Shown: positions 1 to 20,403, numbered from the stretch's first letter. The stretch is DNA of 64,000 nucleotides from Chthoniobacter sp. (GCA_043779205.1 JAYWEP010000105.1:7231-71230), one strand, 5' to 3'. Program-made: numbers and translations. The notes: generated by a model from the letters alone, not told the origin.

Positions 1-2416
1 TGCGGAGACGCTCGCGAGCTGTGTCAACGGCCTGCGATTCGTCAACGCTGATTCCGTCGAGCGCGAGCTGCGCGCCATCGGTAGCGGCTTTGGCGGATGG
101 CTTCTTCGTGCGGCGGTTCGGTGCGGGTGCGGTGCCGCGCTGGCTTTCAGAAAATGCGCGGGCGGCGGTGAGGTAGGTGCGCACGGCGGCATCAAGCGGT
201 TTCAAATCGCGCCCTGCGAGGTTCGGGACGCGCATCTCACCCAATTTTGCGGGGCTAAAGTCCGCCCTAGGGGAATCAGCAAACGTATTGGCGTTCGCAA
301 ACGGGGAGTTCACAAGCGCCCACAAGACTTTGATGGGAATCGCCCCGAGCGGACGAAAACAAATAAAGCGGTCAGTGAACGGTCTGCCGACGGAATCAAT
401 AAACGCCTTATGTCGCCATTTGGAACGACTCGCCCGGGCTTTGTTCAGCAGCACTTGAGGTTGATTCAGCACGGTGCCTCCGCACTTCCGTTCGATGATT
501 TCCGGCTGTTGGTTCAGCCACTCCATCTTGGGCTCGAGGTGGTAATCAGGTGAGTCTTCGGCGAGCAAGAAACCAAGTTGGAAGCCGGGGAGTTCCTTGT
601 CCGATACTTGAACCTCGCCTTTCGGATAGAGAGGATCCTTTTCAGGATAAAAATAGAAGCCGATTGAGACGAAGGCGATGTCCTTCATTCGGCCAAAGTG
701 TTCAGTAGCTATCCAGAGCGCGTTGAGATGAGGAAACACCAGGCGATGCCGCTTGTGTGCAATCACCGCAGCCCGCGATAGCAAAAAACCAGTCGGCACC
801 CGGCATTCGTTCCGAAACGCATTCATATCCGGCTTGAGGATGCGGCGGAACTTGAACGTGTCCGAACCCCGTTGAGCGTCGGGCAATTTTCTCCCGAAAA
901 GAATGGCCGTTTCCGGCTTTGCAAACTTGAAGACGTTGTCGGGGAAAGTGACGACCTCTCGTATATCAATTTTCGCCAGCAGGTCTTTCCGAAGCCTTCG
1001 GAATGATGCTCCATCAAGTATCGCCTGCGGAACGACTATGCCGAACAGACTTTCGGGAGCCGCGTGATTCACAATGCGCCGCAACAGCTCGCCTGCCTGC
1101 CCGCTTCGGGCATAGCGAAGGTCGCCGGACGCGCGCTCCTTGTCGGAAATCTCAATGCCCTCGAATGGAGGATTGGCGATGATGACGGAGTTCGCCGCGA
1201 TATTCTTGGCGAGGTAATCCCCGTCGAACATGTCTTTCACCGGGTCGAGCCGCCAACCGTTCGGATTCGGGATGTCGGCGAGGGTGAGCGAGAGGCGCGC
1301 GATTTCGAGCGCGAAGGCGTCACGATCACAGCCGGCGACGTGGGTGCGGAGGAATTTGCGGCGCGCGTTCTGGTCGCTGGCGATGCGCTCGGGCAGCAGC
1401 TCGCTCAAGAGCCGCACCGCGCCGACAAGGAATGGCGAGTGACCGCACGCGGGCTCGAAGATCCGGCAGTTTTCGATGCCGATGTCTTTCTCCATCCAAC
1501 TGCTCATCCGCGCGAGCATGTAGTCCACGAGATACGTGGGCGTGCGGTGGACGCTGAGGAGCTTGCGCGTGCGCGGGGAGAGCAAAGCTTCCTCGTAAAG
1601 TGCGCCCAGGGTTTCCGTGCTGATGCTGCGGAAGGACGAAAATTTCGCCGCCACATCCGCCGCACCGCGCAGCGCCTTGAGCCGTCCATTCGTGCGAATG
1701 CGTGGCGCGGCGTAGTGGTCGGCCACGCGGTCAAAGACGTTCTGCACGTCGTGCAAATCCAACCGCGTGAACTTTGGCACGCTCTTGTCGCGCATGAGCT
1801 TTCCCGCGAGCAGCCAGAAATTCGCGCGCACCAGCCAGTGCGTTTCGTTTTCGCTCATGTCCGCAGGTTTCAAACCCAGCGCGTCCAGCGTGTGTCCGAG
1901 CATCTCCTCGAAAAGCTGCCGCAACCGCGCGCCGGCCTCCTTTTCCACGAGCGGGAGTAATCCCGTATCTACGAAATCGAGCTGCCGCGCACCCTCCGCC
2001 CGCGCCCAGGTCTTCGCGCGAAAAACTGAGCCGGGTGCGAAGTCGTTTTTATTGTCGTCGAAGAATCGCTCGACCTTATCCGCGTCCAAACGCCGCTCCT
2101 TCCGCGGGCCGTCGCCGCGGAGCGACCACATCTCCCATGCGCCCGATCCGACGAGGAATGCCAGCGGCACGCCCAATTCGCGCAATGCACCGAGGTCGGC
2201 ATTCGGAGTGCGCAACTCGGGCAGAAAGGCGATGCAGGACGAACGCGCATCGCGCGGATGGTGCGCAAAAGTAACGACGGGAATAGTGCGTTCCGACGCG
2301 AGCGAATAATCGTCAACGATGAGGTCGTCGCGATACCGGCAGCCGCGCAGACACCGGCGTATCAACTGCCCGGTGCGGATACTGAAGCGAGGCCGGTCGC
2401 TATCGGGTTTGCTCAT
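1..2416 (-). CDS. Large N6-adenine DNA methyltransferase (type IIG / HsdM-like R-M protein), 3' end beyond window
   Basis: Missing from the ORF track because it runs off the window. Manual translation from ATG at 2416 (MSKPDSDRPRF...) gives more than 800 codons, checked at several points rather than codon by codon. It contains SAM-binding motif I (IFEPACGHAPFL), catalytic motif IV (IIANPPF) and the ETLGALYE...HRTPTYLVDYM segment typical of N-6 methylases. Confidence 0.85.
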   Translation of the reverse strand, partial: MSKPDSDRPRFSIRTGQLIRRCLRGCRYRDDLIVDDYSLASERTIPVVTFAHHPRDARSSCIAFLPELRTPNADLGALRELGVPLAFLVGSGAWEMWSLRGDGPRKERRLDADKVERFFDDNKNDFAPGSVFRAKTWARAEGARQLDFVDTGLLPLVEKEAGARLRQLFEEMLGHTLDALGLKPADMSENETHWLVRANFWLLAGKLMRDKSVPKFTRLDLHDVQNVFDRVADHYAAPRIRTNGRLKALRGAADVAAKFSSFRSISTETLGALYEEALLSPRTRKLLSVHRTPTYLVDYMLARMSSWMEKDIGIENCRIFEPACGHSPFLVGAVRLLSELLPERIASDQNARRKFLRTHVAGCDRDAFALEIARLSLTLADIPNPNGWRLDPVKDMFDGDYLAKNIAANSVIIANPPFEGIEISDKERASGDLRYARSGQAGELLRRIVNHAAPESLFGIVVPQAILDGASFRRLRKDLLAKIDIREVVTFPDNVFKFAKPETAILFGRKLPDAQRGSDTFKFRRILKPDMNAFRNECRVPTGFLLSRAAVIAHKRHRLVFPHLNALWIATEHFGRMKDIAFVSIGFYFYPEKDPLYPKGEVQVSDKELPGFQLGFLLAEDSPDYHLEPKMEWLNQQPEIIERKCGGTVLNQPQVLLNKARASRSKWRHKAFIDSVGRPFTDRFICFRPLGAIPIKVLWALVNSPFANANTFADSPRADFSPAKLGEMRVPNLAGRDLKPLDAAVRTYLTAARAFSESQRGTAPAPNRRTKKPSAKAATDGAQLALDGISVDESQAVDTARERLR

Positions 2417-2512
2417 CGTCGTTCATTCAATGGGCAATCGTATCTCCGCAAAATCACCGCTGCGAATTCTTTTGCTCTGCGGGCTCCTCCCTTCGCCCCC
2501 CCGTTTTCCTAA

Positions 2513-2635
2513 ATTCTCAATCGCGCCGACTGCAAATTGCTGACACACGTTGCCGAGCAGAGTAAAGCCAGCGCCTACCGCCTGCCGGAACTCATCGAGA
2601 ATCTCGTGCTCAGCGATCTCTTCCAAAAGCGTTGA
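2513..2635 (+). pseudogene. 3'-terminal remnant of a DUF1592/DUF1585-type gene
   Basis: 41 codons including the stop, read after an in-frame TAA: ILNRADCKLLTHVAEQSKASAYRLPELIENLVLSDLFQKR*. This resembles the YRLxxLIxxxVxSDLFxK* C-terminus of PVC DUF1585 domains. No start codon. Confidence 0.65.
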
Positions 2636-2715
2636 CGGCCTGGTTGCTCGCCGAAAGCTGATCCACATCAGCCGCGGCGAAGTCGAATGCGCTCCCTCAT
2701 TACCCCAAAACTCCG

Positions 2716-5700
2716 ATGCCTCTTTCACTCCTGCGTCTCGCCGCTCTCCTCACGCTCCTCGCGCCCGGCATCATGGTCGCGCAGGAGTCAGCCGCTCCCG
2801 CTCCGACGCCGCTCCGCGCTGCGCTGCTCGACGAGGCGGCGTTTGCCCAATGGGTCGCGGGCACGGAGACCGCCATCCCGGCAACGGCAGCCAAAGGCGG
2901 CCCGCGGGACGTGACCTGGACGCGGGACAGCCGGCCGGAGTGGAGCGGGGTGAAGTTTGGCGAAGGGCGCGAACCGGCGACGCGCCATCTGCGCATCGGG
3001 TTTGCCGAACCGGTCGCCGTCGGCACGGTGCTGACGCGGGGCGGCGGGACGTTGAGCGTGCTCAAGCCGGGCACGCCCTATCCTGGGAATCTCGCGGACG
3101 ATGCGCAGTGGTTGCCGGCGGAGCGGCTCGTGGGCGCGGCATCCTCCCGCGCGGAGGTGGATGAAGACGGCTATGGCGTCTGGATCCTGCCCGCGGGCAC
3201 GCAGACGCGCGCGCTCCGTTTCAGCCATGATCCTGCACCGGGCGATCGCGAGATGGCGGGCTGGCTCGGCGGCGTGTGGGTCGTGGCGGAGCGCTGGGGC
3301 AATGTGGCTCCGCAGGCGCTCGCGCAGTCGAACGCGCGCGACGATGTGTCGGCGAAGCTGGTGGACGAATCGAATAACCGCACCTGGCAGACGTGGGATA
3401 ATGGCGAGAAGGGCGCGGCGCTGCCGATGTCGCCCGAGCATCCCGAGATCGTGACGCTGACCTGGCCGCAACCCGTGCGCCTGAGCGGGCTCGCGCTGCT
3501 GTGGACCGGTTTTCAGTCGGTGGAAGTGGATGCCTTTACCGGCAGTGCGGAGGAAAACGTCCGCGAGGCTGCAGCGGCGAGCTGGCACCCAATCGCCCAG
3601 CGCCGCGACATGGATGCGCTCTATCCCCTGCCCCTCGCGCCGCATTGGCTGGAGTTTGGCCAGGTCGTGGAAACGCGCGCGTTGCGCCTGCGCATCACCG
3701 GCGGCGCGAAGTCCACGCACTCGCACCTCGCCGACAAGGTGAAGGAAGGGCGGCGCGCGTGGCTCGGCGAAGTGCTCGCGCTTTCGCCGCTGCGCGACAC
3801 CGCGCTGACCACGCTGGTGTTGCCGAAGGTCGTCGAGGAGCCGCCGCCGATCCCGATCAAGTTTCACCTGCCCGAGGCGGGTCTGGTGACGCTGGTGATC
3901 GAGGACACGCAAAGCCAGCGCGTGCGGAATCTCGTGAGCGAGACGCCTTTTCCCGCAGGCGAAAATACCGCGTGGTGGGATGGCAGCGACGATCTGCTGC
4001 GCGATCCCGCGGCAGCGGGGCACGGCGTTTACCATATCCCCACGCGACCCGTCGCGCCCGGCAGCTACAAGGTGCGCGGCCTGTGGCGCAAGCCGGTGAA
4101 GCTGCGCTACGAGATGAGCGTTTATAGCGCCGGCAAACCCGCTTGGGAGACGGCGGACAAGACCGGCTGCTGGATGACCAATCACACGCCGCCCACGAGC
4201 ATGGCCTTCGTGCCGGGCGCGCGCACGGCGGACGGGCAGCCGCTCGTCTTCATGGGTGCGCAAGTCTCCGAGGGCGGCCACGGGCTGCAATGGCTGCGCG
4301 AGGACGCGACGAAAGTCGGCGGGCAGGGCTGGGTCGGTGGCAACTGGACGGGCGCGCCGACGCTCGCCGTGGATGGCGGCAGCGCGGCCATCGCGGAGCA
4401 TCTGTGCTACGTCGGCTCGGTGTGGGAGGGCGAACTGCGCCTCACGGCGAAGACCGCGAAACTCGAGGACAAACCGATCTACAAGGGCAAGCTCGGCGAC
4501 GAGCCGAAGAAGACGACTGCGGAAAAACTCGAAGGCTTCGATGGCGGCGAGCGCATCTTCGTCCTCGGCGGCATCGCGGCGCGCGATGGCGTGCTCGTCG
4601 GTTCACTCGTGCGGCAGAATGAATTGCTTTTCGTCGAGGCGAAGGCGGGCGCGATCAGCGGTCGCGCGGCGGTGGAAAATCCGCGTGGCGTCGCCTTCGA
4701 CGCGCAGGGCCGCCTGCTCGTGCTGAGCGGGAAAAAGCTGCTGCGCTTTGCCGCCGCGAAAGCGGAGTTGGGCAAAGCGGAGACGGTCATCGCGAGCGGC
4801 CTCGAAGACCCGCGCCACGTCCTCACGGATGCGGCGGGGAATTTCTACATCAGCGACCGCGGCGCGGCGCATCAGGTGAAAGTCTTTTCGCCTGCGGGCA
4901 AACTTCTCCGCGTCGTCGGCAGACCGGGCGTGCCGGCGGTCGGACTGTATGATCCGCTCCACCTCAACAACCCGAACGGCCTCGCGCTCGATTCGCAAGG
5001 CCGGCTGTGGGTCGCCGAGGCGGACAACCAGCCGCGCCGCGTTTCCGTGTGGACGCCGAAGGGCGAACTCGTGCGCGCGTTCTACGGCCCGACCGAATAC
5101 GGCGGCGGTGGTGCGCTCGATCCGCAGGAGGCCTCGCGCTTTTTCTACAAGGGCCTGGAGTTCCGGCTCGATTGGAAAACGGGCCGCGATGAACTGGTGC
5201 GCGTCTTCGCGCGCCCCGAGCCGTTAATGGAGGCACAAGGCGGACATTTTTCGCCGGATACGCCGCTGTATCCCGAGGCGCGGAAAGGCGCGCGCTATTT
5301 CACGAGCTGCTACACGCACAATCCGACCGGCGGCGATGACGCGGCCTTTGTGTGGAGCGATGATGGCAAGGCCGTGCGGCTGGTCGCGGCGCTGGGCAAT
5401 GCGCATTCGTGGGCGGTGCTGCGGACGCCGGAATTCCGCGCGCTCTGGCCGGAAGGCACGAAGCCCGAGGACGAGAATCCGAAGCCCGAACAACTCGCCA
5501 CTTTCACCTGGACTGACGCGAACAGCGACGGACGCCCGCAGCCCGGCGAAGTGCGCATGCTGAAAGGCGAGGCGCGCGGCGTGACGGTGATGAACGATCT
5601 GTCGTTCCTCGTCGCGCGCTTCGCTGGCACGACGGCGCGGTTTGCTCCGGCGAGCTTCGATGCCAGGGGCGCGCCGAGCTACGATCTGGCGAAGCCGGAG

Positions 5701-7017
5701 AAACTCGGCCCCGCGGGCGGGCAGCCGCAGTCGAGCGGCGGCGATCAAGCACTGGCCGACGCGAGCGGGTGGACGGTGAACACGAATGCCGTCGAACCAT
5801 TTTCGCCGTTCGGTCTTGGCGGGACGTTCCGCGGCGAACCGCGCTGGAGTTATCCGAGCGCGTGGCCGGGGTTGCACGCGAGCCACGAATCTGCGGTGCC
5901 GGATCAGCCCGGCATGGTGGTCGGGCACACGCGGCTGCTCGGCGGATGGGTGAACCCACCGGGCAAGGCCGGCCCGCTCTTCTGCGTCAATGGCAACATG
6001 GGAAACATGTATCTCTTCACGGCGGATGGATTGTTTGTCGCCACGCTCTTCCACGACATCCGCCTGCGTCCGAACTGGGCCGCACCCGTGGCGGTGCGCG
6101 ACATGGATGTGACGAATGTCTCGCTGCACGACGAAAACTTCTGGCCCAGCATCACGCAAACGCCGGACGGCCGCGTCTTCCTCGTGGATGGCGCACGCAC
6201 CAGTCTCGTGCGCGTGGATGGCCTCGATTCCATCAAGCGGCTGCCGGAACAAACGCTGACGGTCACCGCCGCGGACCTCGATCGCGCCCGCGATTGGTTC
6301 GCCCGCGCGGAGACGGCCCGGCAGAAAGCGCGCGGCAGCGGAACGCTCAGCGTCCCTTTGCGCCAGCATCCCCCGACGGTGGATGGACGCCTCGACGACT
6401 GGCCCGCGGCCACGGACTGGGCGGTGATCGATCGCCGCGGAACCAGGGCCAATTTCGACAGCAACTCGCGGCCTTATGAAGTCAGCGCCGCCGCCTGTGT
6501 GGGTGGCGATCGCCTCTTCGCCGCCTGGCGGACGACGGAAAAGGAACTGCTCAACAACAGCGGCGAAACGCCAAACGCGCTCTTCAAGACTGGCGGCTGT
6601 CTCGACCTCATGCTCCAGACCGATACCGATCAGCGCCTGCTCGTCACGCTCGTGAAAGGGAAGCCGCGGGCCATGCTCTACCGCGCCAAGGTGGCCGGCA
6701 CCGCGCAGCCCGTCGCCTTCAGCAGCCCGTGGCGCACGATCACCCTCGACACCGTCGAGGATGTCACCGCGCAGGTCGCCTTCGCCACGGATGGCGGCGG
6801 CAACTTCGAGATCAGCATCCCGCTGCAAACGCTCCGCTGTCAGCCCAAGCCCGGAGACATCCTGCGCGCCGACCTCGGCGTGCTGCGCGGCTCCAACTTT
6901 CAAACCACCCAGCGCGTCTATTGGTCGAACAAGGCCACGGCCATCACCGCCGATGTGCCCAGCGAAGCCGAGCTGACGCCCAAGCTCTGGGGAAAATGGC
7001 GCATCACCGCCGAATGA
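2716..7017 (+). CDS. 1433-aa secreted multidomain protein (discoidin-like, FlgD-like Ig, NHL beta-propeller, C-terminal CBM9/DOMON-like)
   Basis: Signal peptide. PIPIKFHLPEAGLVTLVIED..RVRNL..WWDG is FlgD Ig-like. NHL repeats include NPRGVAFDAQGRLLV, DPRHVLTDAAGNFYISD and NPNGLALDSQGRLWVAE. PTVDGRLDDW is CBM9-like. Confidence 0.8.
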   Translation: MPLSLLRLAALLTLLAPGIMVAQESAAPAPTPLRAALLDEAAFAQWVAGTETAIPATAAKGGPRDVTWTRDSRPEWSGVKFGEGREPATRHLRIGFAEPVAVGTVLTRGGGTLSVLKPGTPYPGNLADDAQWLPAERLVGAASSRAEVDEDGYGVWILPAGTQTRALRFSHDPAPGDREMAGWLGGVWVVAERWGNVAPQALAQSNARDDVSAKLVDESNNRTWQTWDNGEKGAALPMSPEHPEIVTLTWPQPVRLSGLALLWTGFQSVEVDAFTGSAEENVREAAAASWHPIAQRRDMDALYPLPLAPHWLEFGQVVETRALRLRITGGAKSTHSHLADKVKEGRRAWLGEVLALSPLRDTALTTLVLPKVVEEPPPIPIKFHLPEAGLVTLVIEDTQSQRVRNLVSETPFPAGENTAWWDGSDDLLRDPAAAGHGVYHIPTRPVAPGSYKVRGLWRKPVKLRYEMSVYSAGKPAWETADKTGCWMTNHTPPTSMAFVPGARTADGQPLVFMGAQVSEGGHGLQWLREDATKVGGQGWVGGNWTGAPTLAVDGGSAAIAEHLCYVGSVWEGELRLTAKTAKLEDKPIYKGKLGDEPKKTTAEKLEGFDGGERIFVLGGIAARDGVLVGSLVRQNELLFVEAKAGAISGRAAVENPRGVAFDAQGRLLVLSGKKLLRFAAAKAELGKAETVIASGLEDPRHVLTDAAGNFYISDRGAAHQVKVFSPAGKLLRVVGRPGVPAVGLYDPLHLNNPNGLALDSQGRLWVAEADNQPRRVSVWTPKGELVRAFYGPTEYGGGGALDPQEASRFFYKGLEFRLDWKTGRDELVRVFARPEPLMEAQGGHFSPDTPLYPEARKGARYFTSCYTHNPTGGDDAAFVWSDDGKAVRLVAALGNAHSWAVLRTPEFRALWPEGTKPEDENPKPEQLATFTWTDANSDGRPQPGEVRMLKGEARGVTVMNDLSFLVARFAGTTARFAPASFDARGAPSYDLAKPEKLGPAGGQPQSSGGDQALADASGWTVNTNAVEPFSPFGLGGTFRGEPRWSYPSAWPGLHASHESAVPDQPGMVVGHTRLLGGWVNPPGKAGPLFCVNGNMGNMYLFTADGLFVATLFHDIRLRPNWAAPVAVRDMDVTNVSLHDENFWPSITQTPDGRVFLVDGARTSLVRVDGLDSIKRLPEQTLTVTAADLDRARDWFARAETARQKARGSGTLSVPLRQHPPTVDGRLDDWPAATDWAVIDRRGTRANFDSNSRPYEVSAAACVGGDRLFAAWRTTEKELLNNSGETPNALFKTGGCLDLMLQTDTDQRLLVTLVKGKPRAMLYRAKVAGTAQPVAFSSPWRTITLDTVEDVTAQVAFATDGGGNFEISIPLQTLRCQPKPGDILRADLGVLRGSNFQTTQRVYWSNKATAITADVPSEAELTPKLWGKWRITAE

Positions 7018-7111
7018 AGAACCAGATGGTTTCGCGTCACCCCCCGAATGTTCGGGGAACCTGCCAGCGTGCAAGTAGTCCGCAGCGACCACCAGCCACC
7101 CGCTTCCATCG

Positions 7112-8857
7112 ATGAGCATCGTCCTTTCCCGCCGCCCTTTCCTGCGCGGCCTCGGCGCGATCATTGCGCTCGCATTTCCGCTCGCCGGACAGGCGGAATC
7201 CGCACCGGGAACGCCCGCTCAGTCGAACGGATGGACGATGAGCCCGTTTGGCATCGGAGCCTGCAATCAAACTTCGCAGGAACTCGAAAAGTGGATTCCG
7301 CAGATGGCTGAGATCGGCCTCCATGTCATGCGCACCGCCCGCACGACATGGGGAGACGTCGAACCCGAAGAGGGAAAATGGACGTGGACGGTGTTGGACA
7401 AGCAGATGGCTTATCTGACTGACCAGCACTTTGAATTCGGCGGTCTTCTTTACGGTGGCGTCCGGTGGAACGCGAAGGACAAGCCAGGCACTTTGCCGGT
7501 CAACAATCTTCCGGCCTGGTCCAACTACGTCTCGGAAATCGTGAAGCACTGCAAAGCGAAGGTGAAGTATTGGGAGGTGTGGAATGAACCGCCTAATGGC
7601 ACCGGCCGCGATCAGACGCCCGCGGATTATGCCAAGCTGATGGTCAGCACTTATGACGCGGCCAAGGCGGCAGATCCCACTTGTCTCGTAGGTCTCGCCG
7701 CCAAATCCAATCATGTGAACTATCTCGAACAGACGATCAAGACGGGGGCCAAGGGCCATTACGACTACATCGTTCTGCATCCTTACGAAGTTCTGAATGG
7801 CATCGCCGATAACGTGGGAACGGAGGCCGTTTACATGCACATCGTTCCCACCGTGCGAAAAATGCTGGCTGCCCAGGATCCAGCCAAGGTGAACGTGCCG
7901 ATCATTTTCACCGAGCTAGGGTGCGACGCCAAGAAAGGCCTGGATGTGCAAGCTCACGCATTGGTCAAAGCCTACAGCATGGGCATCGCCCAGGAAGTCG
8001 CGTGCATCCAGTGGTTTGAAGGCATGGACGGCGACAGCGGGCCGATGGGTTTGCTCAAGCGCGACGGCACTCCGCGCCCTGCTTACACGGCCATGGCCCA
8101 AATGATCCGGCATCTGGGACAGCATCCGACTTATCTCGGCTGGGTGCTGCTCAATGGCAAAGACTACGGCTTTGTCTTCCAAGGCGCCAAGGGCACCGTC
8201 CTCGCGGCCTGGGCTCCACAAGGTACGCCTGACCTGGTAAAGTTCGGCCAGTCGGTGCAGATCGTGAACCCATTAACCGGCGAAGTTACTAATGCAGATA
8301 GTTATGATCTAACCACCGCCCCGATCCTGGCGCTGGGTGTGCCGCCGAACATCGTTGCGCAGGCTCAGGCTAACAAGAGCAAGCCATTCCTTTGGGGCGG
8401 TGACTATGCCAGCGCAAAATCGGTTTCCGTCACGATGGGCGAAAGGAACGTGGAAAAAGGTCTGCACACCATGTCGGGCAACGCGGTGGCCGAGGCGGTC
8501 GTGGCTTACGGCGGCGGATCGCGGGCCGGAAGTGTGCCCGGCGGCAATGTCTTCGTCGTCGATCCCGGCTTTCTGTCTTACACGACCACGCCTATCGAAA
8601 TCACCGCCGTCGTCCGCCGCAATGAGGCGAATGACAACGCGGGCTTTAATCTCCAATACGAATCCACCAGCGGGCTGAAAGGCGGCCCGAGTTGGTACAC
8701 CGTGCCGGATAACAAGGAGTGGCATACCGTGAAGTGGAAGATCGACGATGCGCAGTTCGTCAATTTCTGGGGCTACAACTTCTCGTTCAATTCCGACGGG
8801 AACAAATTCAACAAGTATTACATCCAGAGCGTGACGGTGACAAAGCTCGCCAACTGA
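7112..8857 (+). CDS. Clan GH-A glycoside hydrolase (GH39/GH5-like) with twin-arginine-type signal and C-terminal beta-rich domain
   Basis: N-terminal SRRPFL. Acid/base motif YWEVWNEP and putative nucleophile IIFTELG. Confidence 0.75.
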   Translation: MSIVLSRRPFLRGLGAIIALAFPLAGQAESAPGTPAQSNGWTMSPFGIGACNQTSQELEKWIPQMAEIGLHVMRTARTTWGDVEPEEGKWTWTVLDKQMAYLTDQHFEFGGLLYGGVRWNAKDKPGTLPVNNLPAWSNYVSEIVKHCKAKVKYWEVWNEPPNGTGRDQTPADYAKLMVSTYDAAKAADPTCLVGLAAKSNHVNYLEQTIKTGAKGHYDYIVLHPYEVLNGIADNVGTEAVYMHIVPTVRKMLAAQDPAKVNVPIIFTELGCDAKKGLDVQAHALVKAYSMGIAQEVACIQWFEGMDGDSGPMGLLKRDGTPRPAYTAMAQMIRHLGQHPTYLGWVLLNGKDYGFVFQGAKGTVLAAWAPQGTPDLVKFGQSVQIVNPLTGEVTNADSYDLTTAPILALGVPPNIVAQAQANKSKPFLWGGDYASAKSVSVTMGERNVEKGLHTMSGNAVAEAVVAYGGGSRAGSVPGGNVFVVDPGFLSYTTTPIEITAVVRRNEANDNAGFNLQYESTSGLKGGPSWYTVPDNKEWHTVKWKIDDAQFVNFWGYNFSFNSDGNKFNKYYIQSVTVTKLAN

Positions 8858-8887
8858 CTGCTGGATACCGAAAGGAGACAGCCCTCC

Positions 8888-11800
8888 CTATCGGTAAATT
8901 TCTTCCAACCGGTGCGTGAGCTGTCGTGCTTCGGCCCAGCCTGCTTCGACGAAAAGATCGAGCACGCTGAGCAGCGCGGCGAGGCAGTCGGATTCCCGGC
9001 CATCCACGCTTTGAAAAATGTCACGGTGATCGGCGAGAGCCCGTTGGATGAGTTTCACCACCTCGCCCACAGCTAGCGATTCGTGCTGATAACCGGCGGC
9101 AGCACTCGAAGTGATCGCTCTTGTGGCGGTGAGGAAGACTTCGCGGGGCGAGCATGGGAGCAGGTGATGGAGAGTTTGCACGAGTTGATGCGCGGTGTGC
9201 GGGTGAATTTCTGCCGACAGCGCATGGAAGATGTCCGCCGACTCCGTCCAGAACCGTCGTTTCTGAGGCTCGGTCAAATGGTCTTCGTCCTTGTTCTGTT
9301 TGTCTGCGAAGGCACCGCTGGCGAAATAAAGTTGCATCGCAATTCCATCCACAAGCTGTGTACTGCGATTGATGGCTTCCTGAGTGAGTGTCACCGCTTC
9401 GGCCTCGGGCTGGCCTGCGGCATGAAGTTGCTGCCAGCGTTTCCTGTGGTGCCGGAGTTTCGCCTGCACGGTGGCGAGCAGCTTGGCAAAGAAAGCCCAT
9501 GTGCGCTGGCGAACGGTTTCGTCGGTTGCCACGACCTTGACGGCATCGCCGACTGTCAGCCAGCCGCCTGCGCGACATTCGTGAAGTTGAGCGAGAAGTA
9601 CGTGGCTGGCGCGGTGCCGGTCGCATTCGGCGATGAGGCGGTTGATGAACGCTTCACAGTCCGAGTCACCGGTTCGCAGGTAACGGAACAAGTATGTGTG
9701 AGCCAGCGTCTCCTGGATGTGGTTTTCATCGGGCGCGCTTTGCATCGCGCGTTCGGCGATTCGTGACAGCCGCGGCTTAACTGCATCCGACGAGCGCCAC
9801 CAAAGCCGGTCGAGCGAATGCACGACCATTTCCAGCACCGAGAACCTGCGCTCGTAGCGGATGAACCGGTCAATGAGCTGCCACATGAGGTTGGGCGCGG
9901 CTTGTTCGAGCGCGGCGAGACGGTCGCCCATGTTAAAGCGGAGCGGGTGCGACTTGTCGCGGCTCAGCTTGAGCAAAGCTGCGGAGACGGCTCGGTCGGT
10001 TCGTCCGATTCGGTAAACGAGCAGCAGCAATCCACGCGCGGCGTCGATGCGCGGCGCAGGCCAACCCCAACTCGGCCACCGGTCTTCCTTCGCGTCCTCG
10101 TTCTCGGATGCCTTGGGCGATGGGTCGGTGGACGCTTTCAGCAAGATGCGGCGGATGGTTTTCCACCGCTCGCTCGTCGCGGGCCAATCGACGTGGCGGG
10201 CGACGCTCTCACACGCACCGACCAGATGGCCCCAAAGCTCGTCAGCCATCTCGCGCTGCTTCTTGCGATGACGACGCAAGGCGCGCTCGCACCGCCCGAT
10301 GACCGCCCAATGCTCCTCGATCTTACCGACTTCGACTTTGCCGCCGTCCTGCTCCCGGAATGGCTTGAGCGCCTCGCGAAGCTGGAAAAGCTCCGCGTTG
10401 GCCCGGTCTTTCAAGCTGATGCCTCGCCTCTCGACCGCCTCCTCGTCTGAATATGTGTGCGAGGTGACATGGATACCCTCCGGCTCTCGATTCACGGGAA
10501 GCGGTGCTTGTTCGGCGCGCTCACTTCGCAGCACCCGAAAGGCTGGCGAAACGATGTCGGCTTCATCCAATGCACCGAGCAGTTTGTTTTGCGAATACTC
10601 CAGCCAGCCGGGCATCGGCTCGCGCGGTTCATCGTGGAGAAAGCGGGCGGTTTGCGGCAATTCGAGAGCCAGCTTTTCCAGCCGCTCGCGCCGCGCGGCG
10701 TCGCCCGATTTGTGCAGCGCGGTGAAAAGCAAAGTTCCGCCATAGCAGTAGTCGGAATGGGTAAGGAAAAGCGATTCGTCGAGCACGGGTGCCAGCTCGC
10801 GGCCGAGCGTGGCGGGATGCCTGGCACCCGCTTCCATGAACAGCATCCAAATCTGCGATGTCCGGTTGCACGCCGCGAAGTGGTCGAGTGCGAGGCGCAG
10901 TCGCTCTGTGTCTCCTGCAGCGGCCCATTCATTCAGCAGCGTCTCGAGCCGTGTGAGGATGCTGCTCTCCTCGTGCTCGTGCCTGCGTCCCCAGATGTGT
11001 CCGTAGTCCTCGACGAGTTCACACTCGACTCCTCGAAAGCGAATTGTCGCCATGACATTCCCGCCCAATTCGCGCCGCTCGCTGCGCCTGCGCACGGCGG
11101 CGTTCCACGCGATGCAGGCGATGTCGGTCATCAAGCCAGCGTTCGTGCCTGCGCGACTCTGGTAGTATTCGGAGAGGGAGTATTGGATGCTGTTCCAGTT
11201 GTCGCTGTTCTGCATGCGCAGCGGCATGATTGCGCCGCCGAAGTTTTCCCACTCGCCCGGTTTCGGCTCCGTCGAGAATGCCGCCTCAAAGAGCTGCAAC
11301 ACCACGGCGTCTCCATCGCTGCCGAGGTGTTTGAGTTGATGCGCGAAATCGAAAAGATCCCAGTGCGGAAAGCCGGCCAGTCGCCGCGGCGTGAGCATTG
11401 TGAGCAGCGCAGCCTCGCTCTCGGACGGCGCGACCGTGAACGTCCGGCACAGAGTCTCAGTCGCCGTGAGCCCGGCATAGCGCCAGCCTTTGGAAACTTC
11501 CTTCGCGACATGATGCGCCAACACTCCGCGGGCCGCCGTGTTGAGTTCGCGCAGTTGGCCGGGGTCGAACGAACTGCTGACCACATTGAGCCGGGCGAGG
11601 ATGTGGACGATGGGCGTTTCCAAAGACGCGCGGCTCGGAAGCAGCCGGGACAGATTCGCCGCGAAGGAACACCACGCACCGGCACCCGCGCGAATCGTAT
11701 CGCTGTCCGCATCCTGCAGGCCGGACGCCATGTGCCGGAGCGCTTTTTCCGCGGGCGAGTCATCGCTCGTCGCGGCCTGAATGGCGGCAAAGAGCGGGTC

Positions 11801-13933
11801 TAAATCCGCCGATGTGTCCACCCGTCTTGCGGCGAGGATCGGCGCGAGAATCCGGGTGATGCCGTGCAACTGCGCCACGCTCTCCATCTTCAGCGCCGCC
11901 TTCCAAAAGCCATCGCGCCCATCCGGGCCGTCCCACAACTCTTCCAGCGCAAACAAGAAACTCTGGCGATAGAAAATCGGCAGCAGCGGTTCACGAACTG
12001 CAAAGTCTGCGAATCGTGAAGACGCCGCAGGAATCAACGAGCGGGCGATGGCGTAGTCGTGGAGCAAGTGGTGGGAAAAGCGCAGCTCGTCTTCGCCCGC
12101 CGGGCTGCCGTGCCGGAGCACCGGCGACTGCAAAATGCCACGACTGCGAAGCTCGTCGATCGCATCAAGCTCCGGCGCACCGAGCGAAACCTCCTGCACC
12201 GAAAGCGCCATGCTGCGGAGCTGCGTCATCCGGCTGCAAATCGACTGAAGCGCAACCTTCCGATGGCTTGCCCCGGCACCGTCCATCACGCCCGCTTTCC
12301 AAAATCGACGCAGCAAGACCGCAGGGCTGCTCCAATCGGCGAGCCGCGCCGGGGAAACGCCGTCTTTCAAAAGCTCCGCAGCGAGCCGCAGAAAGAACGG
12401 CGAGCGATGAATGCCGCCAGCGCGGAGGTTCTTTCGGGCACTGGCGATGAAGGGACCGATGTCCGCGACCCGCGCGACCAGTTCATCGAGCTTGGATTCG
12501 GCCAGGCCCGCCAGATGGAAATGCGCGACGCCCGCAAACTCGCCCGATGAGTGCCCGGCAACGCCATCGCCGGGAAACGCCTCGCGCAACTCTCGCCCGT
12601 GCTTCAAATCGAACTCGCGAACGCTCGCCACCACCGTCCACCCGGACGTTCCCCGCTGCACGTCCTGGAGCAGCCGGCGCAACATCCGTTGCGTCTCCAC
12701 ATCGCGCACCGCGTCGAGCGCATCGGTGATGAGCACGCCCCTCGCGCCGTCGGGCCAATTTGCCAGCACATCATCCAGCGCGCGGGCCAGCCCCGGCAGA
12801 TTCGCCGCGCCTTTCCAGTCCCGGCCAAAGACCTCCTCAGCCAGCAGCAAAACGACGGGGATTTCTTCGCGGCACAGCGCTTCGGCCAGTGGATGAGTCA
12901 GCCCGCTCTTTCCACAGCCCGGCTCGCCAGTGACGAGGAGGTGCCCTCGCTTCGCCGCCGCGACCATTGCCGCCAGCTCTTCCGTGCGTGCGATGTGAAT
13001 CTCCGCCGTCGCGAATCGAAGCAAGGTATGGTCTTTCAGTCGGGCGAGATTGCGGATCGTGAGTCGCCTGAGGAGTTCCACATCGTCCGCGAAGGCCGGG
13101 GAGGTTTTGAGCTTCAAGCCTTCCGCCGCAAGCATCTGCCGGAGCAAGGCAGCCGTCGTGCGCAATCCTTGTCGGTTGGCTTGATCGAAGTGGCGCTGCA
13201 GCTTCCCAAAAATCCGGCGCGACTGGCTCGGTTCGGCGGCCACTAAATTCCGAATGATCTCCTCTGCCGTTCGCTCATGCCGGAGATCGACGCCGAAATC
13301 AAAGACCTCGACATGGACCATCCGCAAAAACTCGCACAGTTGGTCCTCTATCGGCGCTTTCTTCGTGGCCGATTTCCAAGCGAGCTTGGTTTGGGCCAGC
13401 AACGCTTCCATCGCCTTGCGCTCCCGCGTTTGCCGACGTCTCAGGAAATCAGCCAGGCTCGCGCTATCATCTGCTCTGAAGGTGTCCAACACCTTGAGCA
13501 AATCTCGCGTCATGCCAGCACCCGCAGACGACGGCACTGCCCACATGAGGCGGCTTGCCTGCCGATGCGAAGGCGCGAGCCGCGAGAACTGGCGCACGAA
13601 CGAAGCAACAACTTCGGCAAAGGCTGCGCTTTTCGCGGTGAGCGCAATCGTTCCTGCCCGATGCTTCGCGGAAATGAAGATTTTTGCCGAAGGCTCCCCG
13701 CGCAGTGTCACGACCACATCATCCACCGGCTCCGAGTCCTGCATGGTGATGGCGATGATGTTTCCACCATCGATGCCGTCCCAAACCACGCAGCCATCAC
13801 CACCGAGCATCTTCGTCGCGATGCTCGCAGCAACCTGCGCCTCATAGCCGACCCCAACCGCAGTCGCACGACCGCCAAATCGGGACGGGTGCTTGGATGA
13901 CGGATCATGTCTCCGTTTGGTTGCTTTCTCCAT
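8888..13933 (-). CDS. 1681-aa STAND/NACHT-like NTPase with N-terminal Cap4/Mrr-like nuclease fold (Avs/AVAST-like)
   Basis: N-terminal GGRATAVGVGYEAQVA...VDDVVV...IFISAK. Walker A GEPGCGKS, Walker B LITDALD, followed by about 1000 aa of helical C-terminal region. Confidence 0.75.
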   Translation of the reverse strand: MEKATKRRHDPSSKHPSRFGGRATAVGVGYEAQVAASIATKMLGGDGCVVWDGIDGGNIIAITMQDSEPVDDVVVTLRGEPSAKIFISAKHRAGTIALTAKSAAFAEVVASFVRQFSRLAPSHRQASRLMWAVPSSAGAGMTRDLLKVLDTFRADDSASLADFLRRRQTRERKAMEALLAQTKLAWKSATKKAPIEDQLCEFLRMVHVEVFDFGVDLRHERTAEEIIRNLVAAEPSQSRRIFGKLQRHFDQANRQGLRTTAALLRQMLAAEGLKLKTSPAFADDVELLRRLTIRNLARLKDHTLLRFATAEIHIARTEELAAMVAAAKRGHLLVTGEPGCGKSGLTHPLAEALCREEIPVVLLLAEEVFGRDWKGAANLPGLARALDDVLANWPDGARGVLITDALDAVRDVETQRMLRRLLQDVQRGTSGWTVVASVREFDLKHGRELREAFPGDGVAGHSSGEFAGVAHFHLAGLAESKLDELVARVADIGPFIASARKNLRAGGIHRSPFFLRLAAELLKDGVSPARLADWSSPAVLLRRFWKAGVMDGAGASHRKVALQSICSRMTQLRSMALSVQEVSLGAPELDAIDELRSRGILQSPVLRHGSPAGEDELRFSHHLLHDYAIARSLIPAASSRFADFAVREPLLPIFYRQSFLFALEELWDGPDGRDGFWKAALKMESVAQLHGITRILAPILAARRVDTSADLDPLFAAIQAATSDDSPAEKALRHMASGLQDADSDTIRAGAGAWCSFAANLSRLLPSRASLETPIVHILARLNVVSSSFDPGQLRELNTAARGVLAHHVAKEVSKGWRYAGLTATETLCRTFTVAPSESEAALLTMLTPRRLAGFPHWDLFDFAHQLKHLGSDGDAVVLQLFEAAFSTEPKPGEWENFGGAIMPLRMQNSDNWNSIQYSLSEYYQSRAGTNAGLMTDIACIAWNAAVRRRSERRELGGNVMATIRFRGVECELVEDYGHIWGRRHEHEESSILTRLETLLNEWAAAGDTERLRLALDHFAACNRTSQIWMLFMEAGARHPATLGRELAPVLDESLFLTHSDYCYGGTLLFTALHKSGDAARRERLEKLALELPQTARFLHDEPREPMPGWLEYSQNKLLGALDEADIVSPAFRVLRSERAEQAPLPVNREPEGIHVTSHTYSDEEAVERRGISLKDRANAELFQLREALKPFREQDGGKVEVGKIEEHWAVIGRCERALRRHRKKQREMADELWGHLVGACESVARHVDWPATSERWKTIRRILLKASTDPSPKASENEDAKEDRWPSWGWPAPRIDAARGLLLLVYRIGRTDRAVSAALLKLSRDKSHPLRFNMGDRLAALEQAAPNLMWQLIDRFIRYERRFSVLEMVVHSLDRLWWRSSDAVKPRLSRIAERAMQSAPDENHIQETLAHTYLFRYLRTGDSDCEAFINRLIAECDRHRASHVLLAQLHECRAGGWLTVGDAVKVVATDETVRQRTWAFFAKLLATVQAKLRHHRKRWQQLHAAGQPEAEAVTLTQEAINRSTQLVDGIAMQLYFASGAFADKQNKDEDHLTEPQKRRFWTESADIFHALSAEIHPHTAHQLVQTLHHLLPCSPREVFLTATRAITSSAAAGYQHESLAVGEVVKLIQRALADHRDIFQSVDGRESDCLAALLSVLDLFVEAGWAEARQLTHRLEEIYR

Positions 13934-14040
13934 GATGGCTTTCGGCGTTTCGTTTTTTGTTCCCGGAGGTGAAATTGCTACATCGTGCTACTTCGCCCAT
14001 TCAAAATATCCGGGTGACTCGCGGTTTAGCGAGCGTGCGG

Positions 14041-14104
14041 AGCTACTGTCAGCTTTCGTTCGTTGAATAATTTCGCCCTAAGCGATTTCTTTCAGGAGCG
14101 TTGA
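14041..14104 (+). pseudogene. Degenerate second 3' end of a DUF1592/DUF1585-type gene
   Basis: 14078-14104 (LSDFFQER*) matches 2609-2635 (LSDLFQKR*) at 22/27 nt. Upstream SYCQLSFVE[+1 nt]NFAL aligns with AYRLPELIENLVL. The stop lies 10 nt before the DUF1552 ATG, the usual position of the partner gene. Confidence 0.5.
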
Positions 14105-14114
14105 TCCGACGACC

Positions 14115-15500
14115 ATGAGCAACATTCTTTCTCAGCGCTGGCTCCTTTCCCGCCGCCACTTCCTGCGCGGGCTGGGCGCGACGATGGCGCTGCCGCTGCT
14201 CGATGCGATGATCCCGCTGCGCGCCGCGGATGCTGTGGCGAAGCCGCGCCGGAGCGTGTTCGTCTATATTCCGAATGGCGTGAACGGGATGACATGGCAG
14301 GTGACGAAGCCGGGGCGCGGTTATGAGATGTCGGCGGCGCTGAAGCCGCTGGAGGCGCATCGGGAGGAGTTCACGGTGTTCAGCGGGCTGCATCATCCGA
14401 ACGGGCTCGGGCAGGCGCATGTGTGCGCGGATACGTGGCTCACGGGGGCGAAGATCGATGCGCAGAGCGCGCGGCAGTATCACAACACCATTTCGGTCGA
14501 TCAGCTCATGGCGGAGGTCACGTCGCAGCACACGCGCTTCGGCTCACTGGAGTTGTCGATCAGCTCGGGAACCGGGCAGCCGAACAATTCGAGCACGCTC
14601 GCCTTTTCCCGCGATGGCGTGCCGCTGCCGGCGGAAGATAATCCGCGCAATGTCTTTGATCGACTTTTCGGCGAGGAGCCGGGCGGCATTCCGGCGCAGC
14701 GCGCGGGGCTGAACAAACGCCGTAGCGTGCTGGATGCGGTGCTCGATGAGGCGAAGTCGCTGCGCCTCGCGCTCGGCTCGGAGGACGGCACGAAGCTTGA
14801 TGAATATCTCCACTCGGTGCGCGATGTGGAGCAGCGCACCGAGCGCCTCGACGCGTGGCTCGACGTGCCGAAGCCGAAGGTGGATGCCGCACCTTTCCAC
14901 CGCAATGTCTCGAAGGCGCAGGCCGGCGAATACTACCGCACCATGTATGACCTCATCGTGCTCGCGTTGCGCACGGACATGACGCGCGTGGTGAGCTACA
15001 TGAGCGGGAGCGAGGGCAACGGGCTGGCCATTCCCGAGATCGGCATCACCCAATCGCGCCACCAGCTTTCGCATCACAACGGCGATCCGGAAGTGCTCGC
15101 GCGGCTCGCGAAAAGCGACGCGTTCATCATGCAGCAGTTCGCGTATTTCCTCGATAAGTTGAAAACCGAGATGGATGGCGACACGCCGCTGCTCGACCGC
15201 ACAATGGTGCTCTTCGGCAGTGGCATGAGCTATGGACATAGCCACTCGAATAGTAACCTACCCATCCTGCTCGCCGGTGGCCGCGGCCTTGGGCTGAACC
15301 ACGGGCAGCACATCGACTACAACCAGCCGCAGGGCGGTAACTACAAACTCGACTATGACGAATGGCGCAGCCTTTGCGGCAAGCCGAAGGATGAGAAGGC
15401 GCGGCTCAGTAACCTGATGCTCACAATGATGCAGAAGATGGAAGTGAACGCGGAGAAGTTCGTCGATAGCCTCGGGCCGGTCTCGGAAGTGCTGGCATGA
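14115..15500 (+). CDS. DUF1552 domain-containing protein (Tat-exported, PVC-typical)
   Basis: LSRRHFLRGLGATMALPLLDAM N-terminus; TISVDQLMA, PLPAEDNPRNVFDRLFG and NLPILLAGG motifs. Confidence 0.9.
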   Translation: MSNILSQRWLLSRRHFLRGLGATMALPLLDAMIPLRAADAVAKPRRSVFVYIPNGVNGMTWQVTKPGRGYEMSAALKPLEAHREEFTVFSGLHHPNGLGQAHVCADTWLTGAKIDAQSARQYHNTISVDQLMAEVTSQHTRFGSLELSISSGTGQPNNSSTLAFSRDGVPLPAEDNPRNVFDRLFGEEPGGIPAQRAGLNKRRSVLDAVLDEAKSLRLALGSEDGTKLDEYLHSVRDVEQRTERLDAWLDVPKPKVDAAPFHRNVSKAQAGEYYRTMYDLIVLALRTDMTRVVSYMSGSEGNGLAIPEIGITQSRHQLSHHNGDPEVLARLAKSDAFIMQQFAYFLDKLKTEMDGDTPLLDRTMVLFGSGMSYGHSHSNSNLPILLAGGRGLGLNHGQHIDYNQPQGGNYKLDYDEWRSLCGKPKDEKARLSNLMLTMMQKMEVNAEKFVDSLGPVSEVLA

Positions 15501-18987: not shown

Positions 18988-20403
18988 TCAGCGCGGCGTG
19001 AGCTTGGGACCGTCCTTGGTGTCCTTCACGATCCAGCCGAGCGCGGCGATTTCGTCGCGGAGCCGGTCGCTCTCCGCCCACTGCTTTTCGGCGCGCGCGC
19101 GCTGACGCTGCTCCACGAGCGCGCCGACGGCGGCAGGGATGGCGGCGCTTTCCCGCTGAAAGGCGAGGACGGAATCGAGGTGCCGCCAGTCGGCGAGCAA
19201 GGCGGACGCTTGTTCCGCGGTGAGCGCACGGCGGTCGAGGGCGGCGTTGCTTTCGCGGATGAGGTCGAAGAGGTGGCTGAGCGCGGCGGAGATGTTCAGG
19301 TCTTCGTCGAGCGCGGCGAAAAACTTCTCCACATGCCCGGCGAGCGGTGCCGGCGCGGCGGCGGCATCCAAATCTGAAATCTGAAATCTGAAATCTGAAA
19401 TCCTCTTCACCCATTCGTCGATGCGGCCCAGCGCGGCGCGGGCGGCGTCGAGACCGGCGAGGGTGAAGTTCAGCGGCAGGCGATAGTTGACGGTGAGCAG
19501 GGCGTAGCGGATTTCGCGGCCGGTGAAGCCTTTCTCGAGCAGGTCGCGCAATGTATAAAAATTGCCGAGCGACTTGGACATCTTCTGCCCATCGACCATG
19601 AGGTGCGCGCAGTGCATCCAGGTGCGGACAAACTTTTTTCCCGTGCAGCTTTCGCTCTGCGCGATCTCGGCTTCGTGATGCGGAAAAATGTTGTCCACGC
19701 CGCCGCAGTGGATGTCGATTTCCGGGCCGAGGATCGCGGTCGCCATCGCGCTGCACTCGATATGCCAGCCGGGCCGACCCGGCCCCCACGGCGAATCCCA
19801 GCGCACCTCGCCATCGGCTTCGTCCCACGCTTTCCAGAGCGCGAAGTCGCCGATGTTTTCCTTCTCGTACTCGTCGCTGTTCACGCGTCCGCTCGGGCGC
19901 AGCTCGTCGAGATTGAGATGCGCGAGCGCGCCGTAGGCGGGGAATTTCGCGAGGCGGAAATAGACGCTTTTGTCTTCGGCCTGATAGGCGATGCCCTGCT
20001 CCTCCAATTGCGCGATCATGGCGATCATCCGCGCGATGAAACGCGGCTCGGTGGCGGCGGGGAAATGGCCCGCACGCTTGATTCGCAGCGTCTCGAGGTC
20101 CTGGAAAAAGGCGTCCTTATAGACCTGCGTGAAGTCGGCCAGCCGGCGGCCCGCCGCGCGCGCGCCGCGGATGGTTTTGTCGTCCACGTCCGTGAGATTC
20201 ATCACGCGCTCGACCTCGTAGCCGCGCGCTTCGAGGTGCCGCTGGAGCAGGTCTTCGAAAACGTAGGCGCGGAAATTTCCGATGTGCGCGTGGTTGTACA
20301 CCGTCGGCCCGCAGGTGTACATCTTCACGCGCTTCCCCGCCGGATCGAGCGGGGTGAAATCCTCGAGCTGGCGCGAGTAGGTATTGTGCAGGCGGACGGG
20401 CAT
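18988..20403 (-). CDS. cysS: Cysteinyl-tRNA synthetase
   Basis: MYTCGPTVYNHAHIGN, GRPGWHIECSAM, DIHCGGVDNIFPHHEAEIAQ and KMSKS. Confidence 0.99.
   Translation of the reverse strand: MPVRLHNTYSRQLEDFTPLDPAGKRVKMYTCGPTVYNHAHIGNFRAYVFEDLLQRHLEARGYEVERVMNLTDVDDKTIRGARAAGRRLADFTQVYKDAFFQDLETLRIKRAGHFPAATEPRFIARMIAMIAQLEEQGIAYQAEDKSVYFRLAKFPAYGALAHLNLDELRPSGRVNSDEYEKENIGDFALWKAWDEADGEVRWDSPWGPGRPGWHIECSAMATAILGPEIDIHCGGVDNIFPHHEAEIAQSESCTGKKFVRTWMHCAHLMVDGQKMSKSLGNFYTLRDLLEKGFTGREIRYALLTVNYRLPLNFTLAGLDAARAALGRIDEWVKRISDFRFQISDLDAAAAPAPLAGHVEKFFAALDEDLNISAALSHLFDLIRESNAALDRRALTAEQASALLADWRHLDSVLAFQRESAAIPAAVGALVEQRQRARAEKQWAESDRLRDEIAALGWIVKDTKDGPKLTPR
19370..19402. repeat. Heptamer tandem repeat (AAATCTG)x4.7 inside cysS
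   Basis: aaatctg-aaatctg-aaatctg-aaatctg-aaatc; encodes ISDFRFQISDL. Confidence 0.95.

Follow-up and report, generated by a model that had tools for sequence, protein, structure and literature searches.

Two duplicated 3′ ends of a DUF1592-family gene probably mark separate events at one locus of a Chthoniobacter genome

Phage 21 and e14 integrate at the 3′ end of icd, and islands integrate at tRNA genes, in each case with a surrogate gene end, and the E. coli hsd locus is an example of allelic substitution via conserved flanks. The insertion of a restriction-modification (R-M) gene unit with a long target duplication was reportedly described by Nobusato et al. in Gene in 2000. Furuta, Abe and Kobayashi (Nucleic Acids Res 2010; PMC2853133) recognized such insertions by homologues of restriction (R) and modification (M) genes, a length of <20 kb without other mobility gene, a duplication of >30 bp and a single-copy target in a relative. 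Long-duplication insertion was reported there for restriction types I-IV in several phyla, some of the repeats overlapping the 3′ end of a gene; an excision and re-entry cycle was proposed for R-M units, and a 'substitution' class was defined as allelic replacement at R-M hotspots (PMC2853133). Here, we analyse a window of 64,000 nucleotides (nt) from Chthoniobacter sp. (GCA_043779205.1 JAYWEP010000105.1:7231-71230), which is G000:C105:7231-71230, G000 being the genome that carries the window and C105 its contig. Two short remnants of the 3′ end of a DUF1592/DUF1585-type gene, rem1 and rem2, lie in this window, one beside a DNA methyltransferase gene and the other beside a STAND NTPase gene. 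We consider it probable that two separate events took place at this gene end, an older one that gave rise to rem2 and a slot of changing content, and a younger insertion of an R-M cassette with target duplication that gave rise to rem1. The processes are known ones, and the locus is a new example of them from a new lineage.

A preliminary description of the window had read the remnants as the 3′ ends of a broken gene. However, a scan of the whole G000 assembly with PSD2/DUF1585 (Pfam PF07624) detected eight full-length genes in addition to rem1, and one of the eight, an 840-amino-acid (aa) gene of the DUF1592 family that we label D92, lies just upstream of the window with all six domains (PSCyt1, PSD3, PSD5, PSD4, PSCyt3 and PSD2; PF07624 score 76.9 bits). 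Because D92 is intact and rem1 duplicates its last 112 nt, the gene is not broken, and rem1 is more plausibly a duplicate left by insertion of the cassette. The rem1 frame (2513-2635) translates as ILNRADCKLLTHVAEQSKASAYRLPELIENLVLSDLFQKR* and aligns with positions 39-74 of the 74 in PF07624 (E = 1e-4), its 22.4 bits lying under the 25.8-bit gathering threshold, as expected for a fragment; comparison with the DUF1585 model, suggested in the preliminary description, was thus positive below the cut-off for rem1, and for rem2 it gave no match. Both remnants are fragments of a member gene and not members themselves. At the nucleotide level, a profile of D92 3′ ends taken from other genomes only (nhmmer) matches 2524-2635 with E = 8.5e-19 over model positions 117-228. 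The 3′ end of D92 itself (copy A) and rem1 (copy B) are identical at 87/112 nt, with a local alignment score of 65 as compared with 11.7 ± 2.2 in shuffles.

The closest species representative, G001, whose DUF1552 protein is 97% identical (aa) and whose D92 is 90% identical (nt), retains the empty site. Its gene order is D92, 39 nt, a gene for an NHL-repeat protein, a glycoside-hydrolase-like (GH) gene, a LanC-like gene, a rem2 homologue, DUF1552 and a 610-aa gene, with neither the HNH-methyltransferase cassette nor the STAND gene at the locus. Together with the DNA past its stop codon, rem1 aligns to the D92 end and the NHL-upstream region of G001, and copies A and B both align to the single, uninterrupted G001 copy (88/112 and 83/112 nt, respectively). 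Copy A ends in AAA AGG TAG and is followed by cassette-side sequence, unlike G001. Contigs from several runs or samples and assemblers, one of them 134 kb long, agree at 100% identity over the A-cassette-B structure, and the contigs of four runs show even depth over it and no alternative joint, so that an assembly artefact is excluded.

At most, the insert extends over C105:6181-9753 (~3.56 kb), and two overlapping genes of one operon are its entire content. The methyltransferase matches Pfam N6_Mtase (E = 3e-10) and PADLOC MTase_I (E = 1e-23) and has an NPPF motif at residue 415, and the 207-aa protein matches Pfam HNH (E = 2.7e-7). The two genes stay together in at least 10 other contigs, and the HNH protein is predicted to be the restriction partner of the methyltransferase. 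With a G+C content of 57-60%, as compared with 65-68% in the flanking genes and a genome mean of 64%, a nearest homologue of 55% identity among 151 genomes of the family, and no methyltransferase match beyond the window's own genome in a phylum-wide sample of 400 genomes, the cassette is sporadic and, from its composition and distribution, looks imported. On its methyltransferase side, homology to the cassette copy in L084 stops at C105:9702 (window 2472), ~56 nt upstream of the methyltransferase start, and the stretch 2417-2523 has no homology to D92 or G001. Like the published R-M insertions, the locus thus combines a small R+M unit that lacks a transposase or integrase with direct repeats (~107-112 nt) that far exceed transposon target duplications and align to one copy in a relative; the repeat length varies by event in both, and some published repeats also overlap a gene 3′ end. 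Unlike them, it comes from uncultured Chthoniobacteraceae (Verrucomicrobiota), pairs an HNH protein with a gamma-type N6A (N6-adenine) methyltransferase, has repeats that are 22% diverged and mosaic, and lies inside a coding end, where the junction gives a new Arg-stop; in addition, three unrelated genes bear the pattern within a single cassette family.

These further cases come from homologous cassettes in other genomes, more than 800 homologues of the family having been found. In L087 (methyltransferase 78% aa-identical), the HNH gene and an intact DUF1501 gene are convergent, and the last ~115 nt of the latter recur in decayed form on the side of the methyltransferase (TMPHPWGSHHKGVTCRHSGRNW... 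and TMLHLLGFDHEQLTYRHSGRDF...; alignment score 29 vs 11.6 ± 1.6 in shuffles). In L091 (51%), an intact gene for a PEP-utilising enzyme lies on one side, and at least 212 nt are repeated at 85% identity straight after the HNH stop codon. The L084 cassette (80%) sits between a PSCyt-type gene and the start of the next gene, with the 12-nt CCATGCGACGCG at both junctions. No flanking repeat was seen at the cassettes of G113, L095 and L096 (methyltransferase 55-70% aa-identical), the G113 copy lying between efflux and porin genes with no significant repeat. Independent cassettes are homologous only from the HNH stop codon to a point ~56 nt ahead of the methyltransferase start, and therefore the element has no conserved ends. 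Duplications that are long, differ in length and affect unrelated genes, without a recombinase, match the published phenomenon and argue against a DUF1585-specific attachment site. Of ~10 independent contexts of the family, 3 place it next to PSCyt/PSD or DUF1501-type genes, a class that accounts for ~1.2% of the genes in G000, and this is a weak hint of a preference; a strong link, suggested by 3/4 contexts at first, was given up when eight more contexts had reduced it to ~3/10. As a separate observation, the cassette lies beside SNF2-family helicase, DUF2779, MmeI_N or Fic genes in L089, L090, L095, L096 and L097, and may there belong to larger defence islands or be one component of a larger system. 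A small conserved open reading frame (ORF; 59-91 aa, MSGRKTVPIPDRHSAHPPGKAEWKAA...) precedes the methyltransferase gene in L086 (3845-4120) and L087 (5737-5916), though not in G000, and could encode a controller protein.

The second remnant is more decayed. Its frame, ending at 14104, reads ...SLNNFALSDFFQER*, and its match to the D92 3′-end profile is marginal (E = 0.011 in a search space of 1.6 kb); across the whole window, nhmmer returned nothing for it at E <= 10. The last 27 nt of rem1 match rem2 at 22 positions, and this agreement, first noticed in the preliminary description, is the sole match of >=22/27 on either strand of the 4.82-Mb genome (9.6 million positions); the local alignment of rem2 with rem1 scores 20 as compared with 9.2 ± 1.35 in shuffles. 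Sequence homologous to rem2 lies directly ahead of the DUF1552 start codon in G001 and G012, and the contig L074 carries at the rem2 position a copy of 93 nt (IAEWSKADDSRLADLIANLVLSHFFQKR*) that matches the profile with E = 2.7e-14 (nhmmer). The origin of rem2 rests on the unique 22/27 match and on this better-preserved L074 copy; both remnants are therefore real DUF1592/DUF1585-type 3′ ends, as had been proposed. Because copies occupy the same position in G001, G012 and L074, rem2 predates the STAND gene.

Orthologous D92 and DUF1552 genes lie 8-86 nt apart in G020, G021 and L075, in agreement with the earlier statement that a DUF1592 gene normally stands directly upstream of DUF1552. Their adjacency is thus ancestral, and rem2 marks an old separation in which at least 93 nt were duplicated. 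Synteny in relatives, which the preliminary description had put forward as a check, hence supplied a cassette-free site and an adjacent gene pair, but it also showed rem2 persisting with non-defence neighbours. In more distant relatives with larger D92-DUF1552 gaps, a sulfatase, a GH5 enzyme, a FAD oxidoreductase or an unknown protein occupies the gap, with no visible remnant. The survey for defence genes at truncated DUF1585 ends, likewise suggested earlier, yielded no other orphan 3′ end in seven relatives scanned with PF07624; a candidate in G018:C48 was rejected as a frameshifted full-length gene. DUF1592-family genes split into two frames by frameshifts, which are pseudogenes or assembly errors and can mimic orphan DUF1585 ends, were seen in two relatives, at L076:7464-9884 and L062:9838-12643. 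Two features of the DNA ahead of DUF1552 may also be recorded: the 86-nt spacer of G021 (L037:17702-17787) is a tandem-repeat palindrome, (GGTTCCT)n ... (AGGAACC)n, and G015 and G024 (L039 and L042) have in common a ~60-nt motif (CCAAAGATT..GGTAAT.CAGAG.GCCGGGG..TA.ATCCGTCTCG) ~100 nt upstream of the DUF1552 start, which might act as a leader or a regulatory element.

Between the GH gene and rem2-DUF1552, close relatives hold unrelated cargo within the same flanks. The four occupants of this slot are the STAND NTPase gene (1681 aa, opposite strand) in G000, a gene for a DUF3472/PA14 protein (1232 aa, opposite strand) in L074, a LanC-like gene (same strand) in G001 and an esterase gene (opposite strand) in G012. 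Between the window and L074, the methyltransferase, rem1, NHL and GH sequences up to ~7509 are 99-100% identical (97-100% for the part of GH before the breakpoint), the remainder of GH (~7509 to 8862) is 85-91% identical, the slot shows no similarity by BLAST, and similarity restarts at 14069, inside rem2, with 93.5% identity in DUF1552 and 83% in the 610-aa gene. The abrupt step at ~7509, within the GH gene, would be the mark of a recombination tract by which the slot gene was transferred along with diverged flanks, and the slot content has probably been exchanged by homologous recombination in the conserved flanks. In this respect, the locus resembles hsd-type allelic substitution, since the GH gene and rem2-DUF1552 enclose unrelated genes and the flank divergence jumps beside the swapped segment. 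Unlike hsd-type defence hotspots, the slot has a single defence gene among its four occupants, the rest being secreted or metabolic, and the site is thus a general plasticity slot and not a defence island.

The STAND protein matches the PADLOC candidate family PDC-M54A over its full length (E = 3e-239). It had been labelled Avs-like; against NCBIfam Avs4, with an equivalog cut-off of 1500, it scores 21.8 bits, in the NTPase region only, and it is not an Avs4 member. The gene occurs in 4/151 genomes of the family. Its closest homologue, in G004 (70% identical), is bordered by an RND efflux operon and by a gene for an AraC regulator; no D92 remnant accompanies it, and it has no flanks in common with the window copy.

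Together, these data suggest the following history. The starting point would be a DUF1592-DUF1552 gene pair, between which an older event placed DNA and duplicated at least 93 nt of the D92 end while leaving D92 intact. The older duplicate would have stayed joined to DUF1552 and decayed into rem2, and the intervening DNA would now be represented by the NHL gene, the GH-like gene and the slot directly upstream of rem2, the content of which would have been replaced lineage by lineage, most likely by homologous recombination in the conserved flanks. In the younger event, the 3.56-kb HNH-methyltransferase cassette, which has no recombinase, would have entered ~6 nt before the D92 stop codon and duplicated ~107-112 nt of its target; D92 would continue to use the upstream copy as its end, closed at the junction by a new Arg-stop (AGG TAG), and the downstream copy would be rem1. 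The biochemical route of insertion is one that we infer.

Several observations weigh against this history. Copy B is a mosaic, its 5′ 52 nt being 67-71% identical to every D92 end compared, with 71% for copy A, and its last 42 nt lying near the cassette-free orthologues. Moreover, in an 18-nt patch (TACCGCCTGCC.GAACTC), copies A and B agree at 17/18 positions, whereas G001, L058 and L060 match this patch at only 9-10/18 and each other at 15-18/18. Such a pattern needs later gene conversion between A and B or a donor-derived segment acquired via recombination. Under pure target duplication, it is by coincidence that the junction receives precisely Arg-stop from the cassette. No excised, empty or circle form was found in the contigs of four runs, from which rare variants are dropped. 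The best PADLOC matches of the HNH protein are PtuB-like, its restriction role being predicted. L074 is a single megahit metagenome contig, and its breakpoint could in principle be an assembly chimera, which is unlikely because it would require an identical 141-mer between sequences that are 10% diverged. Finally, the NHL-GH block between the members of the gene pair may have arisen by insertion with duplication or by tandem duplication followed by loss.

The last of these points concerns the older event. The NHL-repeat protein is 64-86% identical across Verrucomicrobiota and Planctomycetota, and 64-72% in distant members (Rhodopirellula, Stieleria and Anatilimnocola), and its gene stands before the D92-DUF1552 pair in L075, between its members in G000, G001 and L076, and after it in G020. 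Because it is highly conserved and permuted around the pair, NHL is a partner gene and not imported cargo, and its distribution suggests that NHL, DUF1592 and DUF1552 may form a functional trio. The idea that the NHL-GH-STAND block had been inserted with a duplicated, now decayed target was therefore right in part: the block does lie between decayed direct repeats, rem1 and rem2, but NHL does not qualify as cargo. The shifting position of NHL would be better explained by rearrangement of resident genes than by import, and rem2 might accordingly have been formed by tandem duplication of the D92 3′ end-DUF1552-NHL segment and random loss, with no foreign insertion. We regard this as unlikely, although worth keeping in mind: three events are required, no intermediate form was found, and in both G000 and G001 a 4-nt overlap joins DUF1552 to the gene after it, leaving no scar of a lost NHL copy.

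For the younger event, we also considered spread by homology, of a Campbell type, in which RecA would excise a circle with one repeat that re-enters relatives at the same gene end, so that rem1 would stem from re-integration of DNA from a related donor. In a second lineage, L058, D92 is ~90% identical to that of G000, the left junction is identical, and the HNH gene end is 96-99% identical, 172 nt of cassette sequence being available from L058; the cassette is thus far less diverged between the two lineages than D92. This low divergence and the mosaic copy B, with its patch in common with A, keep such a route under consideration, and a cycle of this kind has been proposed for R-M units (PMC2853133). 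Nevertheless, the route appears quite improbable, given that neither a circle junction nor an empty site was present in the contigs of four runs, that the L058 comparison depends on so short a stretch, and that the first insertion would still require another mechanism. Also speculative, and at best slightly less improbable, is a view in which the cassette family is a self-mobilising R-M unit: its own nuclease would make widely staggered breaks, ~100-400 nt of the 3′ part of the host gene would be duplicated and the gene kept intact, and the repeats would later permit excision and re-entry, with the abundant PVC-specific PSCyt/PSD-DUF1501/DUF1552 pairs perhaps favoured.

It is very doubtful that the DUF1592 3′ end is an attachment site at which integrase islands, bringing replacement gene ends, integrated in tandem and later lost their integrases. 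As in phage 21, e14 and tRNA islands, an intact gene is followed by inserted DNA and a decaying copy of its 3′ end, and the succession of end A, cargo, end B, cargo and end C resembles tandem islands. The divergent 5′ and resident-like 3′ parts of copy B around a nearly identical 27-nt core are as for a crossover at an attachment site, and the left junction is identical in two lineages with D92 10% apart. Unlike those elements, however, the locus has no integrase and no conserved attachment sequence, and related cassettes use unrelated targets, duplicating 12, ~115 or at least 212 nt with ends that are not conserved, or leaving no repeat; furthermore, the cargo between B and C includes the conserved partner gene NHL. 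Consistent with the preliminary description, a Pfam search of all ORFs between C105:1 and window position 19000, including the 7.2 kb upstream of the window, detected no integrase and no tyrosine or serine recombinase. Orthologues of D92 (79-91% identity) have six different next neighbours, namely the HNH-methyltransferase cassette, NHL, GH, an SGNH-type hydrolase gene, a housekeeping-like XerC/D gene and DUF1552. The tyrosine recombinase next to D92 in L061 was rejected as a mobility gene: a 62%-identical copy is present elsewhere in G000, and it is most likely a housekeeping XerC/D. That the remnants are chance similarities or assembly artefacts, for which only the lack of a Pfam match to rem2 could be cited, is refuted by the profile matches to rem1 (E = 8.5e-19) and to the L074 copy of rem2, by the uniqueness of the 22/27 match and by the identical structure in several independent assemblies.

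The preferred history of two separate events bears on how the neighbourhood as a whole is understood. A hotspot of insertion or turnover had been suspected here, and the cassette insertion and the four slot occupants bear this out. The two pairs of defence gene and remnant had been attributed to one process, but the association is causal for the cassette and rem1 and incidental for the STAND gene and rem2, which predates it and adjoins LanC-like, esterase and DUF3472/PA14 genes in relatives. Likewise, the view of the DUF1592/DUF1585 end as a recurring target for defence genes finds no backing, because homologous cassettes duplicate DUF1501 and PEP-utilising enzyme ends or sit elsewhere and the closest STAND homologue lies in an unrelated context; targeting specific to DUF1585 or to defence genes is not supported. 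A defence gene next to a gene fragment can thus have two origins, the fragment being made by the insertion or being an older scar at a general exchange slot. The cassette locus offers a clean example, with filled and empty site, of the poorly understood movement of R-M genes without a recombinase, in an uncultured verrucomicrobial lineage of soil and sediment, and the same signature of one cassette family at three unrelated genes makes it a candidate for an experimental test of the mechanism. In annotation, both remnants should be labelled pseudogene fragments, and an ORF of 81-101 aa called antisense to rem1 (window 2423-2728, minus strand; e.g. L081:380-625), which is probably spurious, should be disregarded.

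The order of features (Table 1) was obtained from an ORF listing and Pfam, PADLOC and NCBIfam searches. The spacing noted in the preliminary description was reproduced, the methyltransferase start at 2416 lying ~100 nt from rem1 and the STAND start at 13933 lying 108 nt (~110 nt in that description) from rem2; a gap of 10 nt separates the rem2 stop codon from the DUF1552 ATG at 14115.

Table 1. Features of the D92 locus and repeat copies at homologous cassettes (window positions unless a contig is named)
Feature	Position	Strand	Basis or remark
D92, intact DUF1592-family gene, 840 aa	C105:3658-6180		ends ~1.05 kb before window position 1
HNH endonuclease gene, 207 aa	C105:6213-6836	-	downstream of methyltransferase gene, 22-nt overlap; Pfam
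N6-adenine DNA methyltransferase gene (943 aa full)	1-2416 (complete C105:6815-9646)	-	runs past window 5′ end; Pfam, PADLOC
Methyltransferase-gene upstream region, cassette-side junction DNA between insert and rem1	2417-2523	.	
rem1, downstream copy B of the last 112 nt of D92	2524-2635 (open frame 2513-2635)	+	nhmmer
Secreted NHL-repeat protein gene, 1433 aa	2716-7017	+	Pfam NHL
Glycoside-hydrolase-like (GH) protein gene, 581 aa	7112-8857	+	weak Pfam Glyco_hydro_42 and Glyco_hydro_10 matches
Variable slot, here STAND gene and its upstream region	8863-14068	.	no similarity to L074 (BLAST)
STAND NTPase gene, candidate defence gene, 1681 aa	8888-13933	-	PADLOC PDC-M54A
rem2, decayed relic of DUF1592-family 3′ end	14041-14104	+	22/27 match to rem1; copies in relatives
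DUF1552 (HXXSHH) gene	14115-15500	+	Pfam PF07586, E = 7e-95
610-aa gene, overlapping DUF1552	15497-17329	+	ORF listing
Repeat copies at L087 cassette	L087: 5543-5654 and 9459-9573		DUF1501 gene end
Repeat copies at L091 cassette	L091: 531-726 and 4530-4741		PEP-utilising enzyme gene
Repeat copies at L084 cassette	L084: 2991-3002 and 6546-6557		12-nt repeat

Outside the window, at C105:635-1693 (L012) and three genes ahead of D92, lies an AbiJ-like gene (AbiJ_NTD4 + DUF7014) to which the part of the corresponding G001 contig that was examined has no match; it is a third defence-type gene within ~21 kb.

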